A stretch of 64,000 nucleotides of DNA from Verrucomicrobiota bacterium JB025 (GTDB taxonomy: Bacteria; Verrucomicrobiota; Verrucomicrobiia; Verrucomicrobiales; Akkermansiaceae). Position 1 is the stretch's first letter, and each line of letters opens with the position of its first letter. Position numbers and translations under genes: made by a program. Positions 216-26,530 of the stretch are shown one piece after another. Below the pieces are notes generated by a model, which saw only the letters and a program-made list of their open reading frames with translations, was not told the origin of the DNA and did no database searches. The stretch is from assembly GCA_030673875.2 (NCBI GenBank), contig JAUTCT020000132.1, positions 29,080 through 93,079 of the forward strand. Reading direction: 5' to 3'.

Positions 216-836
216 ATGAACTCCACCAAACTCGGAAACCCCGCCGTCGTCGGACTCGGCGGATTCGGCCTCACCACCCTGCTCCTCCAGATCCACAACC
301 TCGGGCTCTGCGGCATCGGCCCCGTGCTCGCCATGGGCCTCGTCTTCGGCGGTGGCGCGCAACTCGCCGCCGGCCTGATGGAACAGAAAATGGGCAACAA
401 CTTCGGCTTCGCCGCCTTCACCGCCTACGGCGCGTTCTGGCTCGGCCTCGGGGTGATCTGGATCTGCAACCACTTCGGAATCTACGCCTCCAGCGGCACC
501 GACGTCGGTTGGTTCCTCGTCGTCTGGACGCTCTTCACCCTCATGCTGTGGGTGGCATCGTGGTTCATCCACTCCGCGATGGCAATCACCTTCACCACCC
601 TCGTCGCCGGATTCGTCCTGCTCGACCTCGGCCATTTCGGGTTCCCCGTGCTCAACACCGTCGCCGCATACGTGCTCATCGTCTGCGCGCTCTGCGCATG
701 GTACATGCTCGCCGCCATCGTCATCAACGACGTCGCCGGCCGCGCGCTGCTGCCGGTCGGAAAAGCATGGATCTCCGCGAAATCCGCCACACCCGCGGTT
801 TCCACCACTCCCACCATGCAGGCAGACGCCGCCTGA
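216..836 (+). CDS. satP: Acetate/succinate uptake transporter, GPR1/FUN34/YaaH (SatP) family
   Basis: N-terminal signature LGNPAVVGLGGFGLTTLLLQIHN, about six hydrophobic helices, YGAFW motif. ATG at 216 chosen over the in-frame GTG at 192. Confidence 0.9.
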   Translation: MNSTKLGNPAVVGLGGFGLTTLLLQIHNLGLCGIGPVLAMGLVFGGGAQLAAGLMEQKMGNNFGFAAFTAYGAFWLGLGVIWICNHFGIYASSGTDVGWFLVVWTLFTLMLWVASWFIHSAMAITFTTLVAGFVLLDLGHFGFPVLNTVAAYVLIVCALCAWYMLAAIVINDVAGRALLPVGKAWISAKSATPAVSTTPTMQADAA

Positions 837-858
837 TCGGCCGGACCAGCCCCTAACA

Positions 859-902
859 AAAATCCCGCCCGGGCACCCATTGCCCCGGCGGGATTTTCTT
901 TT
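859..902. terminator. Bidirectional rho-independent terminator
   Basis: AAAATCCCGCCCGGGCA-cccat-TGCCCCGGCGGGATTTT hairpin (one mismatch) with A- and T-tracts, between convergent satP and GH2. Confidence 0.85.
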
Positions 903-963
903 GATCCACTCACGGCCGGATCCCCCCTTCCCTCAGGTGGACCCGCCGGTTCTCAAGCCCGAA

Positions 964-6016
<5,053 letters not shown>

Positions 6017-19655: not shown

Positions 19656-19845
19656 ACCACGCGGTTCGCCCCGCTGAATGCGCCAGCCACGGGCACCGCA
19701 ATGCCCCCGCCCCCCCCGCTCCCGGCGAAACGAAAAAAAAATCGCATTTCCGAGTATAGATCCGCTCTGCCCGGGTGTTCTCTATCATGAAGGGGAATGA
19801 ATGACCGGTGCCTTTGGCCCTCGTCGCTTCGATTGTTTCATTCCC

Positions 19846-19861
19846 AAACCCACCAAAACCT
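19846..19861. repeat. Right arm of the 16-bp inverted repeat (AAACCCACCAAAACCT)
   Basis: Exact reverse complement of 19480-19495. Confidence 0.9.
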
Positions 19862-19992
19862 TACCAACCCAAACAAACCCACTGACGCTCCGGCACATTC
19901 GCCGGTGCCCGCGGCTCCGAGTACCCAACTCACCCGCCACCAACCCATCCAAAATCCATCATCATTCCAAAATCCTACATAAATCCAACATC

Positions 19993-22716
19993 ATGAAAAA
20001 CCGCCGACACTCGTTCCCGCCCTCCCTGCGCACCCTTTCCTCACTCGCCATTCTGGCACTCACCGGAGCAGGCGCTCAAGCCGCCGACCTCACCTGGATC
20101 GGCCCCGCCGACCCCGACACCGGAGTCTGGGACGTCGGCACCACGGCAAACTGGAACGACGGAGCCTCCGACACCACATGGACCGACGGTGACAATGCAA
20201 TCTTCACCGCCGGAAGCTACAACATCGACATCGCCGACGGCGGCGTCTTCATCAAGGACCTCACTTTCGGCGGAGGCGGCGAATTGCTTCTCAAATCCGT
20301 CACCGACAACGAAGGCATCATCGTCGTCGATTCCGGCGGTGGCACTTGGGACACCGGTGGTGGAACCATCTCGCTCTATAACCTCAACGACACGTTCGAC
20401 ACTCCGCTCGAAGTCGAAAGCGGTGACACCCTCACCATCGTCGGCGGCGGATCCTTCGACACCGGAGAAAACCCCACGGATGCCAACTGGATGGTCGAAG
20501 GGGCCATCCTCGACATCGCATCCGCAACAACAGTGCGGGGAAATTCCGGCAGCGTCGGACAGTTCGCCACCGTCAAAATGGCCGATGGCAGCACCTACCT
20601 GCACCGTCGCAACATGGATCAGACCTACGCGAACGATTGGGAATTGGGCGCGGGCACCATCACATTCGACAATTCCTACGCGAGGAGTATCACGCTGAGC
20701 GGTGTCATTTCCGGACCCGGAACCCTCAAGGCCGAGTCCATGGCCAATAAAATCCTCACTCTGTCAAACACCGGCAACACCTTCTCCGGCGGACTGACCG
20801 TCGGCGCCAACACAACGGTCCTGATCACCGACGTCGCCCAAATGGGCGATGCGGCCGGGGACCTCACCCTCAGCGATGGAGGCATCGTCAAATTGCAGGG
20901 AGGCATTGACTTGGGAAGCACCCGCGAAATCGTCCTGACCGGCACCGGCGGCGCCATCGTCAACGCCGGCGTCAACTTCTTCTCGGGAAACATCACCGGT
21001 TCCGGCGATTTCCAAGTCGGTGATGACATCCACTATGGCAATACCAACGTCATCACGCTGTCCGGCACGGCTGATTACACCGGCGCCACCAATATTCGCG
21101 TGGGAAGCGTGAAACTCGGTGCGGATGAAGCGCTCAATAGCGGGGTCATGACCATCGGCGGGGCGAACACCGCCCGTCTCGTCCTCGATGGACATACCCA
21201 GACCATTGGCGGCCTGCTCAACGTCGGGAGCAAGACCAAGCAAATCGTCAACCTCAATGCCACCACCACAGACAGCACTCCCGGCACACTCATTTTCGAT
21301 GTCGCGGAGGGTGCTGATTATTCCGCCGGATCGGCTACCGGAGTCGTCGCTACGGACGACCGCGGCAACTTCAGCATCATCAAAAACGGACTGGGCAGCC
21401 AGACCCTCGGCAACGTGACCATCAGCGGCGACGCCACCGTCAACGAAGGAACCCTCACGATCGGTAATTCCAACGGAACCTGTACCGTCCTCGGCCAGGC
21501 CACCGTGACCGGCGGAACCCTCGCCATCGCAGAGGAAATGATCGGCCTCACCTCGATCGATGTCACCGGTGGTGGCACCTTGCGGATCAGCGCCGACAAC
21601 TACCTCGGCGACCTCGCCGCTCCGATCACCCTCGACGGCGGCACACTGAATGTCCAAATGGAAAACAGCACCGGCGGCAGCTTCGAGATCGACTCCAGCC
21701 GCCCGATCATCCTCGGTGCCGACGGAGGAACCATTCAGACCACCACCCCGAGCGGTGCCTGGTACGTCGCCTACAACGGCGAGATCTCCGGAACCGGCTC
21801 ACTCGTGAAGTCCGCGGGCCAAACCCTCGAACTCGGTGGCGAAAACACCTACACCGGCGCGACCACCATCAGCGGAGGAACCCTCCGCCTGACCGGCAGC
21901 CTCGCATCCGATGTCACCGTGCAGGGTGGCAGCACCTTCCTCGCCGGTGACTCCGCAACCGGAACCGGAACAGGAACCCTGCCCTCGCTCACGCTGGAAG
22001 CCGGTGCCAGAATGGTCAGCGTCCTCGACACCGATTTGGAAGACGCCGGCATGGCGATCGTTTCCGGCGCGGTGACGATCGACCCGACCGCGACTCTCGC
22101 AGTGGCTGACCGCGGCACCGGCGAGATCATCGCCATCGGCACCAAGTTCACCCTCATCGACTACGCCGGCGGCTCCCTCACCGGCACCTTCGACGGACTG
22201 GCCGACGGCTCCACCATCACCGTCGGATCCAACCTGTTCGTCATCGACTACAACGACGACGAAACCCCGGACACCGTCACCCTCACCTCCGCCGGCAGTG
22301 CGAATCCCTACACCCTCTGGGTGGATGAATTCACCAACCTGACCGACTCGAGCTTCCCGCTCGACTTCGACAACGGCGGACTCTCCACCGGAGTTGAATA
22401 CGTCGTCGGCGGGGATCCGACCCTCGGATCGGACGACGCCAAACTGGCGCCCTCCGCCGTGAACACCGGAACCACGCTCGAGTTCACCTTCCGCCGCACC
22501 GACCTCGCAAACGAAGATGCCAACACCACGATCACCGTGGAATACGGCTCCGACCTGCTGGGCTGGACCACCGCGGCCGATGGAGTCGACGGCATCGTCA
22601 TCACCGAAACCGACAACTTCTACGAAGAAGGCGTCGACCAGGTCATCGTCAGCCTGCCTGCCGCACTTGCGACCGACGGCAAAATCTTCGCACGCCTGAA
22701 CGTCGAACAACCCTAA
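19993..22716 (+). CDS. PATR beta-strand repeat surface protein, paralog of 17181-19460
   Basis: Signal peptide MKNRRHSF...GAQA, repeats NTFSGGLTV, DYTGATNIRVGSVKLG and LVKSAGQTLELGGENTYTGATTISGGTLRL, and C-terminal GVEYVVGGDP...DGKIFARLNVEQP. Confidence 0.88.
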   Translation: MKNRRHSFPPSLRTLSSLAILALTGAGAQAADLTWIGPADPDTGVWDVGTTANWNDGASDTTWTDGDNAIFTAGSYNIDIADGGVFIKDLTFGGGGELLLKSVTDNEGIIVVDSGGGTWDTGGGTISLYNLNDTFDTPLEVESGDTLTIVGGGSFDTGENPTDANWMVEGAILDIASATTVRGNSGSVGQFATVKMADGSTYLHRRNMDQTYANDWELGAGTITFDNSYARSITLSGVISGPGTLKAESMANKILTLSNTGNTFSGGLTVGANTTVLITDVAQMGDAAGDLTLSDGGIVKLQGGIDLGSTREIVLTGTGGAIVNAGVNFFSGNITGSGDFQVGDDIHYGNTNVITLSGTADYTGATNIRVGSVKLGADEALNSGVMTIGGANTARLVLDGHTQTIGGLLNVGSKTKQIVNLNATTTDSTPGTLIFDVAEGADYSAGSATGVVATDDRGNFSIIKNGLGSQTLGNVTISGDATVNEGTLTIGNSNGTCTVLGQATVTGGTLAIAEEMIGLTSIDVTGGGTLRISADNYLGDLAAPITLDGGTLNVQMENSTGGSFEIDSSRPIILGADGGTIQTTTPSGAWYVAYNGEISGTGSLVKSAGQTLELGGENTYTGATTISGGTLRLTGSLASDVTVQGGSTFLAGDSATGTGTGTLPSLTLEAGARMVSVLDTDLEDAGMAIVSGAVTIDPTATLAVADRGTGEIIAIGTKFTLIDYAGGSLTGTFDGLADGSTITVGSNLFVIDYNDDETPDTVTLTSAGSANPYTLWVDEFTNLTDSSFPLDFDNGGLSTGVEYVVGGDPTLGSDDAKLAPSAVNTGTTLEFTFRRTDLANEDANTTITVEYGSDLLGWTTAADGVDGIVITETDNFYEEGVDQVIVSLPAALATDGKIFARLNVEQP

Positions 22717-22849: not shown

Positions 22850-24886
22850 TCAGCGGCCGTCGTCGGTGGTTTCCACCACCTCCACCAAGCCGCGCAGCAC
22901 CGCCAGCTGCCCGCGATCAAACTGCCCCGGTTCGATCACCAACCGCCTCAGGCCGACCATTCCGTTAAGCGGTTCGAGATCCACCACCGGAGTGCCGCGG
23001 ATGTCCAGATTCTCCAGGTCGAGGCCGTCCAGGTTCCAGAGGTCATCGATGTCCGATCCGCTGATGTCGAGCGACCGCAGCGGCAGCAGGCGCAGCAGGC
23101 TGCGCACGGGAACCAGCTTCTCGGTCCGCCGCGCGCCTTTCCGATAGAGCGATCGGAGCCCCTTTCCCGAAACCCGCAGGTGGCCGTTCTTGCGATCATA
23201 GGCAAACTCGCGCGACCGCCACCCCCGATTGCTCAGCTCCAACATCACCCGCAGAATCCTCGCGGTATCCCGCAGCGACTTGCGCTTCAGACTGTCATAG
23301 ATGATCATTTTCTCCATCAGCGGATAGCGGCTCTTGCTGTCCAGCGAGAGGGTTTTCAGCAGACGAATGAACTCGTCCACCGGCAGCAATCCGTCCTCGG
23401 CAACCAACGGCGCAAACTCGGGAATCAAATCCCGGATCGACTTCTGACTCCCCTGCCGGATCGCGTAATACCGCTCCGACTCCTCAAACCGCTGGGTCAT
23501 GAACAACACGTGGGCCATGATCGTCCAGCGCCGGTCCGTCGGCGGCGGATTCGACTCAAAGCCCCGCTGCAGCGCCGCCATCGCATTGTCGATGACCGGC
23601 AGACTGATGCTTTCCTTCACCATCAGGAAATCAATGAGAAACAACACGTTCGCCTCCGGAATGTCCTCGCGACTCTCAAACACGGCCATCGCAAACTCCC
23701 GCTCCTGCCGCTGCCGCTCGAGCGCCTCCTCCGCCCGGGCTCGCGCGGCATCCGCACCCACCAGCGCCTCTTCCGTCCGCGCCAGCGCCTCGGTCGTCCT
23801 GTGGTGGCTCGCACTCAATTTCTGCGTGAACCAAACCGCGGCCGTCAGCGCGAACGCGATGAATACCAGCGAAATCACGCAGAGCTGGCGGTTCCGCCGG
23901 AAAAACAACCGAACCTCGCGCACCACCCCGGCGTTCTCCACCTCCACGCTGTAGCCCATCAGGTGCCGCTTCACATCCTCACGCAGCGCCTGGACATTCG
24001 GATACCGGTCGGCCGGATCCTCGGCACAGGCTTTTTCCACAATCGCCGCAACAGCCGGTGAGGCATCACTCAACTTGTGCCGCCGGCTCGGACGGTGCAG
24101 CGTGGAGAGTTCAAATAACAAACAACCCAGCGAATAAATGTCGGTCGCCGGAGTTTTCGTCGCCCGCGGTGTCGATAGCTCCGGCGCCATGTAGCCGGGC
24201 GTCCCCTTGATCGACGCCTCCAGCTGGTCGCCATACAAATCCGGATCCAGCAAGGCCACGGAATCCTGTTCCTCGTCCCCGTCCCGCTCCACCTCGCCCA
24301 TCCCCCAGTCGCATACCTGCACTTCCCCGAAGGTCCCGACCTGGATGTTATCCGGCTTGAGATCGAGGTGCAGCACCCGCCGCGAATGCGCGTAGGACAT
24401 CGCATCACACACCCGCAGCAGGATCGACAGCCGCGCCTCGTAGGGAAAGCGCTCCTCCGCCTCGCCCTTCCGCAGGGCTGAGAGGATCTTGCGCAGCGAC
24501 TGCCCGCGCTTGAACTCCATGGTGAAAAACGGCCGCATCCGCTCGTCGATGCCCATGTCAAACAGGTTGATGATGTTCGGATGCTCGAGACGCGCGGTGA
24601 TGTGGGCCTCGCGCAGGAACGAATCGTAACGCTCGATCGGCACCCCCTCCCTCGGCCTGGCCAGTGCGACAAATCGCTCGGTGTGCTCATCATACACCTT
24701 GAACACCTCCTTCATCCCGCCCCTGCCGATCAGCGTCTCCTCGCCGTAGCGTTTCTCGACGCGGCGCAACGCATGATAGAGCGGGCACAACGCCTGCTCC
24801 TCGTCCAGAGACAGGTCCGCCAGCTGCCGCTCGGCCTCCTCATAGAGCGCCCGGTACGAGGTGAAAACCGCATCGTCATCCTTCAT
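22850..24886 (-). CDS. Membrane Hanks-type Ser/Thr kinase with atypical (WNK-like) Lys placement and C-terminal leucine-rich repeats
   Basis: GRGGMK, VALAR, EAHITARLEHPNII, HLDLKPDNI, DWG, GTPGYMAPE and DIYSLG. One TM helix (LCVISLVFIAFALTAAVWF), a coiled coil, then LRR (LRSLDISGSDIDDL...LENLDIRGTPVVDL). Confidence 0.9.
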   Translation of the reverse strand: MKDDDAVFTSYRALYEEAERQLADLSLDEEQALCPLYHALRRVEKRYGEETLIGRGGMKEVFKVYDEHTERFVALARPREGVPIERYDSFLREAHITARLEHPNIINLFDMGIDERMRPFFTMEFKRGQSLRKILSALRKGEAEERFPYEARLSILLRVCDAMSYAHSRRVLHLDLKPDNIQVGTFGEVQVCDWGMGEVERDGDEEQDSVALLDPDLYGDQLEASIKGTPGYMAPELSTPRATKTPATDIYSLGCLLFELSTLHRPSRRHKLSDASPAVAAIVEKACAEDPADRYPNVQALREDVKRHLMGYSVEVENAGVVREVRLFFRRNRQLCVISLVFIAFALTAAVWFTQKLSASHHRTTEALARTEEALVGADAARARAEEALERQRQEREFAMAVFESREDIPEANVLFLIDFLMVKESISLPVIDNAMAALQRGFESNPPPTDRRWTIMAHVLFMTQRFEESERYYAIRQGSQKSIRDLIPEFAPLVAEDGLLPVDEFIRLLKTLSLDSKSRYPLMEKMIIYDSLKRKSLRDTARILRVMLELSNRGWRSREFAYDRKNGHLRVSGKGLRSLYRKGARRTEKLVPVRSLLRLLPLRSLDISGSDIDDLWNLDGLDLENLDIRGTPVVDLEPLNGMVGLRRLVIEPGQFDRGQLAVLRGLVEVVETTDDGR

Positions 24887-25524: not shown

Positions 25525-25557
25525 GGCGAGAGACTATTGCCGGCCGCGTCGCCATGC

Positions 25558-25613
25558 CAATTCTCAATTCCCAATTCCCAATTCCCAATTCCCGATTCCC
25601 GATTCCCAACTCC
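25558..25613 (+). repeat. Heptamer tandem repeat, 8 units, consensus CAATTCC
   Basis: CAATTCT, 4x CAATTCC, 2x CGATTCC, CAACTCC read directly from the sequence. Confidence 0.95.
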
Positions 25614-25648: not shown

Positions 25649-26530
25649 TCAACTGCGGAAATCCCGCGGCCGCGCACCCGTGTGCTTGAGAAATGCCCGG
25701 TGAAAACTCGCCGACGACCGATAGCCGCACCGGTCCGCGATCTCCACCAGCGAAAGATCGCTCGATGCCAGCAGGCCGATCGCCCGGCGGATCCGGTAGT
25801 TTCTCAGATACGCCCCTATCGCCACTCCGAACTGCTCCTGGAATTTGCTCCGCAGATGGCGTTCGGATATCGACAGCTTCACCGCCAGCGGCCCCACCCG
25901 CAGATCATCGGGCGGCAGGCGTTCGAGCTGCACCTGCATCCGCTGCCACAGCCCCGCATACTTGCGCGCCGGTGATACCGGCGGACCATCCTCACGCCCC
26001 CGCACCCGGTGGCACCACCGCCCCAGCATCCGCGCCACCCCGGCACACAAGTCATCCGACCTGCCGGGGGACAGCCCCTCGTTGAACAATCCCGCCATCG
26101 ACTCAATCGCCGCCAGATCCTGCTCGTCCAGATCCAGACTCGTCTGCCTCAACGGCGCCAATCGCTCCGGTTCCGCACTCTCAAAGGTGATCAACAACCA
26201 GAGAATGTCGGATGACTCCAAATTCAAAAACTGGTGGTAGGACTGCGGGAAAACCAAATGGGCCTTCCCGGGTTTCAGATCAAAAGGCACTCCGTCCACC
26301 GCCAGCGTCCCCGCGCTCTCCAGACAGACCACCACCACGAACCGCTTGTGCAAATGCGACTCCACGCTCCTCCGCCGCAGATCACGCGCCTCACGCCGCG
26401 AGAACAACAGCACATCATCCACCGGCGCCAGATACACCCGGTGCCAGCCCTCGAAATACGCCGCCGGGGATGCCGGCGCCGACAAGGAACCCACCTTCTC
26501 TTTGAGCGATTGCGCAATCTTCATCTCCAT
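25649..26530 (-). CDS. AraC family transcriptional regulator
   Basis: N-terminal cupin-like domain and C-terminal double HTH (LAVKLSISERHLRSKF...IADRCGYRSSASFHRAFLKHTGARPRDFR). Confidence 0.92.
   Translation of the reverse strand: MEMKIAQSLKEKVGSLSAPASPAAYFEGWHRVYLAPVDDVLLFSRREARDLRRRSVESHLHKRFVVVVCLESAGTLAVDGVPFDLKPGKAHLVFPQSYHQFLNLESSDILWLLITFESAEPERLAPLRQTSLDLDEQDLAAIESMAGLFNEGLSPGRSDDLCAGVARMLGRWCHRVRGREDGPPVSPARKYAGLWQRMQVQLERLPPDDLRVGPLAVKLSISERHLRSKFQEQFGVAIGAYLRNYRIRRAIGLLASSDLSLVEIADRCGYRSSASFHRAFLKHTGARPRDFRS

Follow-up and report, generated by a model that had tools for sequence, protein, structure and literature searches.

A WNK-like lysine arrangement in a clade of bacterial Hanks-type kinases, most of those sampled encoded beside an ECF sigma factor

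Can a bacterial protein kinase that lacks the lysine of strand β3 still be an enzyme? Textbooks present this lysine as invariant in protein kinases, and a protein without it is routinely labeled a pseudokinase. The question is raised by a 64,000-nucleotide stretch of DNA from Verrucomicrobiota bacterium JB025 (contig JAUTCT020000132.1, positions 29,080 to 93,079), here called the window, in which the gene P0001 encodes a transmembrane serine/threonine kinase that follows directly on the gene for an extracytoplasmic function (ECF) sigma factor, P0002. An initial annotation had proposed that P0001 carries its catalytic lysine in the glycine-rich loop and an alanine in β3, that this double change is the one known from the eukaryotic WNK (With No K, i.e., no lysine) kinases, and that the protein is an independently evolved, active kinase rather than a pseudokinase. 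Reading the minus strand together with its translation, we find the positions given there to be exact. Lys59, encoded by AAG at 24710-24712 (M58-K59 reads ATG AAG), stands in place of the third glycine of GxGxxG, and the codons of V73 to P78 read GTC GCA CTG GCC AGG CCG, so that Ala76 (GCC, 24659-24661) occupies the site of the VAxK lysine and is followed by Arg77 (24656-24658); the span 24659-24727 has G54, in the glycine loop, and A76 as its ends. The subdomain II invariant lysine of Hanks kinases is thereby absent from P0001, with Ala76 there instead. The rest of the machinery is intact. The catalytic loop HLDLKPDN (residues 173-180), the metal-binding motif DWG (193-195) and the APE that closes the activation segment (234-236) are present, as had been stated, and so is Glu93 of helix αC, the glutamate with which the ATP-anchoring lysine usually forms a salt bridge. 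With HLD replacing HRD, P0001 is a non-RD kinase.

Residues 59 and 76 are fixed by three independent gapless alignments, namely phmmer against the PDB, the family profile against PknB, and BLASTP against WNK1. The phmmer alignment places LIGRGGMKEV opposite ILGFGGMSEV of PknB and RFVALARPR opposite RDVAVKVLR, such that K59 faces the serine of the PknB loop GFGGMSEV and A76 faces the lysine of PknB VAVK; the family profile agrees. The BLASTP alignment to the WNK1 kinase domain, for which we used a sequence identical to PDB 5w7t_A, covers IGRGGMKEVFKVYDEHTERFVALA and pairs K59 with the glycine-loop lysine of WNK1 and A76 with the cysteine of VAWC, bearing out the proposed likeness to WNK at both sites. 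The published numbering of these two WNK1 residues is K233 and C250 (PMC1821047). The glycine-loop site and the β3 site are 17 residues apart in P0001, as in PKA and WNK1, and Lys59 is the first residue of strand β2 in an AlphaFold2 model of the protein.

The arrangement extends far beyond this one protein. Two word-index searches, with P0001 and a paralogue from the same genome as queries, yielded 239 distinct relatives at 32-67% identity from Verrucomicrobiota, Planctomycetota (Rhodopirellula type), Kiritimatiellota and Lentisphaerota. In a kinase-domain profile alignment, position 59 is lysine in all 239, while position 76 is alanine in 234 and threonine in the remaining 5 and is lysine or arginine in none. 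When phmmer was run exhaustively against 1.84 billion representatives of clusters at 50% identity, it returned 12,082 proteins at E<=1e-30, a number that is only an upper bound on the size of the clade because just the best 150 were checked. Among these best 150, 128 were new, and every one that includes the N-lobe (125/125) has lysine at the first site and alanine at the second, hereafter Lys/Ala; E93, D175, K177, N180 and D193 are kept in 126/126 cluster representatives. In both sets combined, every database relative whose sequence extends over the site (364/364), including those with only about 30% identity, has the glycine-loop lysine, and none has a β3 lysine or arginine. Homologues thus conserve the glycine-loop lysine, as the initial annotation required, not only in these 364 proteins but also in 69/69 family loci read from genomes. 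Chance can be set aside for a pattern that hundreds of relatives share without exception; the swap is a clade character, fixed across Verrucomicrobiota (including Kiritimatiellia and Lentisphaeria) and Planctomycetota.

The two sites change together. We fetched 80 loci from species-representative genomes, comprising 37 family loci (L001-L037) from the Planctomycetes-Verrucomicrobia-Chlamydiae (PVC) bacteria and 43 outgroup loci (L038-L080) that come mostly from Myxococcota and also from Xanthomonadales, Acidobacteriota and others. The glycine-loop lysine occurs together with the β3 alanine in 37/37 family loci versus 0/43 outgroup loci; in the latter the loop residue is glycine, serine or alanine, the β3 lysine is present in 40/43, and neither lysine is present in 3/43. 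In a further sample of 16 matches, drawn from the search of 301 Verrucomicrobiota genomes described below, 15 are Lys/Ala and the exception, L091, is canonical at both sites. A sample from Lentisphaera marina gave 14 Lys/Ala kinases among 20 matches, all of them high-scoring; the 6 lower-scoring matches are without the glycine-loop lysine, and 5 of these keep the β3 lysine. The JB025 genome itself has eight kinase-like open reading frames (ORFs), of which three are Lys/Ala and five canonical. In total, 69 genomic-locus kinases have both changes, while the other 55 never have the glycine-loop lysine and 51 of them keep the β3 lysine. Among the genomic-locus kinases examined, none has both lysines and none has the β3 alanine minus the loop lysine, so that the covariation for which the initial annotation had proposed a test is found throughout. 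Of all alignment columns, only those of positions 59 and 76 separate the 55 clade rows perfectly from the 44 canonical ones. The next best is Thr97, present in 96% of clade rows versus 18% of canonical rows; this residue lies one helical turn past Glu93, at what we take to be the RS3 position of the regulatory spine by textbook PKA numbering. WNK1 carries leucine at the equivalent position. A few isolated relatives have neither lysine, with Ser/Met (L039), Gly/Val (L054) or Gly/Ile (L058 and L113) at the two sites, and these would be the better candidates for true pseudokinases.

Where did the arrangement come from? Trees were built with both trait columns, 59 and 76, removed. The data allow the Lys/Ala rows to be placed in one clade: a tree constrained accordingly was slightly better than the free quick tree (approximately unbiased (AU) test, p = 0.78). 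In a mixture-model tree, WNK1 joins CDK2 and PKA, whose sequences were verified against the PDB, at 100/97 support and outside the bacterial clade; an AU test with WNK1 as the sole eukaryotic row gave an uninformative p = 0.56. When the family profile was run against the PDB, PknB was the best match (4e-41), followed by PknS, StkP, Stk1 and PknA, and no WNK was among the 34 PDB matches at E<=1e-20. Because WNK1 groups with CDK2 and PKA and the best PDB matches are bacterial, the resemblance to WNK is convergent, and we reject kinship with WNK. The clade, then, arose within the bacterial Hanks-type kinases, independently of the eukaryotic WNKs, in agreement with the independent origin suggested at the outset. 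Its nearest canonical bacterial relatives likewise carry HLDLKPxN and DWG, and some read VALKRP at β3; the canonical locus L044, for example, reads REVALKRP, with an arginine of the Arg71 type and a basic residue 77 beside a retained β3 lysine. These relatives indicate that an arginine or lysine just after the β3 site is ancestral. The sole canonical row within the Lys/Ala clade is L091 (G247:C8, ORF 457-3795 on the minus strand), a Verrucomicrobiota kinase of 1113 amino acids that reads GGMGAI and VAMKMM and lies inside the clade in both trees; it may be a natural double reversion or an artefact of poor local tree resolution.

The architecture of P0001 is that of a receptor (Table 1). The protein has a single Pfam match, Pkinase (PF00069), at 121.8 bits against a cut-off of 31.7 (4.5e-35), and its AlphaFold2 model (mean pLDDT 86) contains a confident kinase fold, with β1 at residues 51-55, β2 at 59-66, β3 at 71-78 and αC at 84-98. 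A Foldseek search of the PDB with this model gave NEK7, PknA, PknB and the sigma factor-linked PknS as top structural matches and no WNK entry among the top 50, confirming the kinase fold and nothing more specific. Beyond the transmembrane helix, the model comprises a helical domain at 410-552 and then a β/α repeat at about 556-672 that resembles leucine-rich repeats (LRRs). A Pfam scan of the C-terminal 336 residues of P0001 matched no family, and Pfam LRR_4 is present in one homologue (P0078). From the model we presume that this extracytoplasmic region is a sensor. Separately, the motif LLDPDLYG (residues 212-219, window 24230-24253) is near-invariant in the sigma factor-linked subfamily and lies within an acidic insert of the activation segment where model confidence is low; it could be a docking or regulatory element.

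Table 1 Features of the kinase/sigma factor module in window coordinates
Feature	Position	Strand	Basis
Transmembrane Ser/Thr kinase gene P0001, 678 amino acids	22850..24886	(-)	ORF list and translation
Layout of P0001: N-terminal extension 1-46; kinase domain about 47-320; transmembrane helix 335-353; coiled coil; periplasmic helical and LRR-like domain			
Glycine-rich loop G54-R-G-G-M-K59-E-V61	24704..24727	(-)	DNA reading, PDB and WNK1 alignments, model
Strand β3 V73-A-L-A76-R77-P78	24653..24670	(-)	DNA reading, PDB and WNK1 alignments
Glu93 of αC (FLREA)	24608..24610	(-)	Invariant in aligned relatives
Thr97	24596..24598	(-)	Column comparison; typical of the clade
Catalytic loop H173-L-D175-L-K177-P-D-N180	24347..24370	(-)	H, D, K, P and N invariant
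Metal-binding motif D193-W-G195 (DWG instead of DFG)	24302..24310	(-)	D193 and W194 invariant
End of activation segment A234-P-E236 (APE)	24179..24187	(-)	E236 invariant
Hydrophobic segment LCVISLVFIAFALTAAVWF, residues 335-353, single transmembrane helix	23828..23884	(-)	Sequence; inside long model helix 333-404
Extracytoplasmic region 405-678	22853..23674	(-)	Model secondary structure, pLDDT >90
ECF sigma factor gene P0002, 213 amino acids	24883..25524	(-)	Pfam Sigma70_r2 and r4_2, TIGR02937
Weak sigma-70-like promoter match (candidate only)	25533..25560	(-)	9/12 positions, just upstream of the sigma factor gene

In the window, the stop codon of P0002 overlaps the start codon of P0001 (ATGA), and both other Lys/Ala kinases of the JB025 genome also follow a homologous sigma factor, so that the module is present three times. 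Elsewhere, a homologous sigma factor gene adjoins 31 of the 37 family kinase loci, usually upstream and on the same strand; in the Kiritimatiellales, it lies mostly downstream of the kinase gene and on the opposite strand. The loci with this downstream, opposite-strand arrangement (L015, L017-L022, L025 and L037, mostly Kiritimatiellales/Pontiella) read GGEK(K/R/T)I in the glycine loop. Inspection of ORFs and Pfam matches in this window revealed no anti-sigma factor gene in the module. Region 2.2 of P0002 is acidic (DLDDARQQ; family consensus D.dD..Qq), and serine or threonine is conserved in the sigma factor family at positions 15, 18, 86 and 183. A promoter and terminator scan of the module gave nothing above the level of shuffled sequence. 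The module is flanked by a gene for a PATR repeat protein (19801-22716, plus strand) and one for an AraC-type regulator (25649-26530, minus strand), and a paralogous sigma factor-kinase pair of the same genome (C154:20054-25257) adjoins a sulfatase-like gene. These neighbors hint at control of surface or glycan-related genes. The JB025 genome also encodes a second type of pair (C30:26345-29570), in which the kinase is canonical (GGGSYGEV, RAVKVV) and is preceded by a more distant ECF sigma factor with the standard region 2.2 sequence DEAFDCVQE; linkage to a sigma factor therefore does not require the lysine swap. In P0234, a JGI metagenome protein of 600 amino acids, one ORF contains a family sigma factor joined directly to a Lys/Ala kinase domain, and the C-terminus looks frameshifted; it may be an artefact of assembly or gene calling at the overlapping stop and start codons rather than a true fusion.

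The family occurs across the PVC bacteria, and in most sampled members the kinase is paired with an ECF sigma factor. Of 301 Verrucomicrobiota genomes searched, 81 (about a quarter) gave matches at E<=1e-70, in 32/149 genera. Copy numbers differ widely, with about 60 full-length matches in Lentisphaera marina (5.3 Mb; genome G302, the source of L026), about 25 in Pontiella sulfatireligans (genome G303, the source of L024) and about 4 in Rhodopirellula sallentina. In one small-genome genus (2-3 Mb) of the same family as JB025, the kinase family is absent at E<=1e-70 from all listed genomes; either the module was lost from this genus or it was never present there.

We consider it probable that P0001 is a receptor-type Hanks Ser/Thr kinase that is active by means of Lys59 and acts as the signaling partner of the ECF sigma factor encoded upstream. 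In our model, Lys59 would reach into the active site from β2, touch the phosphates of ATP and pair with Glu93 of αC; it would in this way do the job of the missing β3 lysine, as K233 does in WNK1, and render the enzyme catalytically active. The periplasmic helical and LRR-like domain would sense an extracytoplasmic cue, which is probably related to glycans given the gene neighborhoods and the expansion of the family in polysaccharide-degrading lineages. The activated kinase would then phosphorylate its cognate sigma factor and so turn on nearby genes, in a module that has no anti-sigma factor gene of its own. What speaks for an enzyme is that the catalytic Asp, Lys and Asn, the Asp of DWG and the αC Glu are invariant, which is the pattern of an enzyme under selection and not of a decaying pseudokinase. 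The initial annotation's preference for an active kinase thus gains support from the clade-wide invariance of the catalytic residues, with activity and the role of Lys59 predicted from sequence.

Several points weigh against this reading. For every member of the clade, kinase activity, the role of the glycine-loop lysine and the substrate are extrapolations from sequence, and the geometry that we propose for Lys59, ATP and Glu93 is assumed by analogy to WNK1. The suggestion of glycan sensing derives entirely from gene neighbors and from which lineages have expanded. The perfect covariation represents essentially one evolutionary event and its long retention, possibly with one reversal, and not a set of independent replicates; the weight of this evidence is the retention through deep divergence and massive paralogy, not repeated independent co-occurrence. 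Because the sigma factor retains an acidic region 2.2, the phospho-threonine mechanism of the sigma factor group ECF43 (see below) is inapplicable and no phosphosite can be named. Finally, the Verrucomicrobiota sample includes clade forms without a sigma factor, some short (about 380-445 amino acids) and some long (about 900-1200 amino acids), and phosphorylation of a sigma factor therefore cannot be the function of the whole clade. In sum, the evidence for the pattern is strong and that for catalysis is indirect.

How do other explanations of the same pattern fare? P0001 could be a pseudokinase, no longer able to transfer phosphate, that binds a nucleotide or is purely structural and tethers the sigma factor to the membrane as a scaffold. 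It would amount to an anti-sigma factor with the fold of a kinase and would let the sigma factor go upon a periplasmic signal. In topology it matches a classical anti-sigma factor, its N-terminal domain being cytoplasmic and its C-terminal domain periplasmic, with one transmembrane helix between them; the module has no separate anti-sigma factor gene, and a sigma factor that keeps its acidic region 2.2 does not obviously depend on phosphorylation for binding RNA polymerase. In a pseudokinase, several catalytic residues are normally lost, whereas here the catalytic Asp, Lys and Asn, the Asp of DWG, the αC Glu and the Glu of APE show no variation in more than 360 sequences (30-67% identity), and the dead-kinase candidates in our sample (L039, L054, L058 and L113) look different, having lost both lysines and being isolated. 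Loss of the β3 lysine is one of three sequence criteria for pseudokinases (PMC12599244, PMC4718504), but it is accompanied in this clade by a new invariant lysine at the one position known, from WNK1, to be able to replace it (PMC1821047). We regard a scaffold as unlikely on balance, if the most serious competitor of an active enzyme. A different doubt concerns not activity but the source of the charge, which might be Arg77 or the invariant Arg71, leaving another role for the glycine-loop lysine. Kinases are known in which the β3 lysine is replaced by arginine and ATP is still bound (PMC12599244), and position 77 is basic in 205/239 close relatives, with lysine in many. Across the 126 cluster representatives, however, position 77 is lysine or arginine in only 50 and glutamate or aspartate in 21, the rest having threonine, glutamine, valine or others, and in the subfamilies without a sigma factor it is threonine, isoleucine, leucine, valine or tyrosine. 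Moreover, residue 77 of the β-strand faces the side opposite to that of 74 and 76, both basic residues are present in canonical relatives that have the β3 lysine and are hence ancestral rather than compensatory, and the two groups are told apart by positions 59 and 76 alone. The variability of position 77 among cluster representatives and the same basic residue in canonical relatives led us to reject Arg77 as the lysine shifted by one, and a charge supplied by either arginine seems to us very improbable.

It is about equally improbable that the remodeled ATP site serves some other chemistry or ligand, be it a different nucleotide, a non-protein substrate, or a gating anion or small molecule. 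WNK kinases, the only other protein kinase family known to be so arranged, bind chloride in the catalytic site, and chloride gates WNK1; in addition, the clade has its own Thr97 at the presumed RS3 position, beside the vacated pocket. Nevertheless, the P+1 loop and the residues that place a protein hydroxyl are conserved in the manner of ordinary protein kinases (HxDLKPxN, GTxxYxAPE), the DLG of the WNK chloride pocket is DWG here and HRD is HLD, and nothing in the data supports ion sensing. As a long shot, we speculate that the clade of PVC bacteria forms another with-no-lysine lineage, independent of WNK, in which a pocket lined by Ala76 and Thr97 binds a gating anion or metabolite and thereby integrates periplasmic and intracellular state.

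Should the kinases of this clade be active through the glycine-loop lysine, as we favor, the consequences would reach beyond this locus. The WNK solution would be one that evolution can repeat, the labeling of PVC proteins as pseudokinases from sequence would be systematically wrong for this clade, and the swapped enzymes, their canonical sisters and the one apparent revertant would form a natural comparison set for the repositioning of the ATP-anchoring lysine. The clade would also mark an uncharacterized and much-expanded sigma factor signaling system in marine polysaccharide-degrading bacteria. In the literature searched, which included a 2025 review on bacterial pseudokinases but did not extend to subscription journals, we found no description of a glycine-loop lysine in bacterial Hanks kinases, and the literature on kinase-linked ECF groups that we examined makes no mention of an unusual lysine arrangement in the kinases. 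WNK has been described as the only functional family of eukaryotic-type protein kinases that lacks the β3 lysine, with the small-molecule kinase family CAK-chloro as the one parallel cited (Kannan et al. 2007, PMC1821047).

Like WNK1 (PDB 5w7t, 6cn9), P0001 has a lysine at the third glycine of the loop (IGRGSFK in WNK1, IGRGGMK in P0001), a small non-basic residue at the β3 site (VAWC and VALA, respectively) with the same 17-residue spacing, and a full complement of αC Glu and catalytic-loop residues. Unlike WNK1, which groups with CDK2 and PKA and shares no common descent of the trait with the clade, P0001 has HLD and DWG in place of HRD and the chloride-pocket motif DLG, and instead of the WNK accessory domains (autoinhibitory, CCT-like and SPAK/OSR1-binding) it has a transmembrane helix, a coiled coil and a periplasmic sensor; judged by these features, chloride or osmotic regulation of P0001 appears unsupported. 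In CAK-chloro, the positive charge of position 72 (PKA numbering; Met72) has apparently passed to position 55 (Arg55), for which the WNK parallel was drawn (Kannan et al. 2007, PMC1821047). CAK-chloro shares with the P0001 clade a repositioned positive charge but is a small-molecule family of the choline/aminoglycoside kinase type and not of the Hanks type, uses arginine rather than lysine, and has lost the αC Glu as well.

By sequence (4e-41) and fold, the closest solved relatives are the bacterial Hanks kinases PknB, PknA, StkP and Stk1, with which P0001 shares a receptor layout in which one transmembrane helix links a cytoplasmic kinase to an extracytoplasmic sensor. These kinases differ in that they keep the β3 lysine (VAVK in PknB), have glycine or serine at the third loop position and carry other sensors (PASTA, etc.). 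The closest functional parallels are pairs of an ECF sigma factor and a Hanks kinase. In group ECF43, represented by PknT-EcfP of Vibrio parahaemolyticus and PknS-EcfK of Xanthomonas citri, the adjacent Hanks kinase phosphorylates the sigma factor directly (PMC8999054, PMC13147305); ECF43 sigma factors are without the acidic DAED motif and have a phosphorylatable threonine there, and phospho-threonine supplies the missing negative charge (PMC8999054). Further kinase-linked groups, ECF59-62 and ECF217, have been predicted from Planctomycetes (PMC7826278, PMC8999054). The P0002-P0001 pair has in common with such systems a sigma factor gene adjacent to that of a transmembrane Hanks kinase and no anti-sigma factor gene, and PknS (9eed) ranks with the best matches both in sequence and in fold; the Xanthomonas- and Lysobacter-type loci in our sample (L045, L055 and L060), possible orthologues of PknS, are canonical. 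In contrast to ECF43, P0002 keeps an acidic DLDDARQQ, as reported for kinase-linked groups other than ECF43 (PMC8999054). In its sequence features, the P0002-P0001 pair thus resembles the kinase-linked groups ECF59-62 and ECF217 rather than the ECF43 type.

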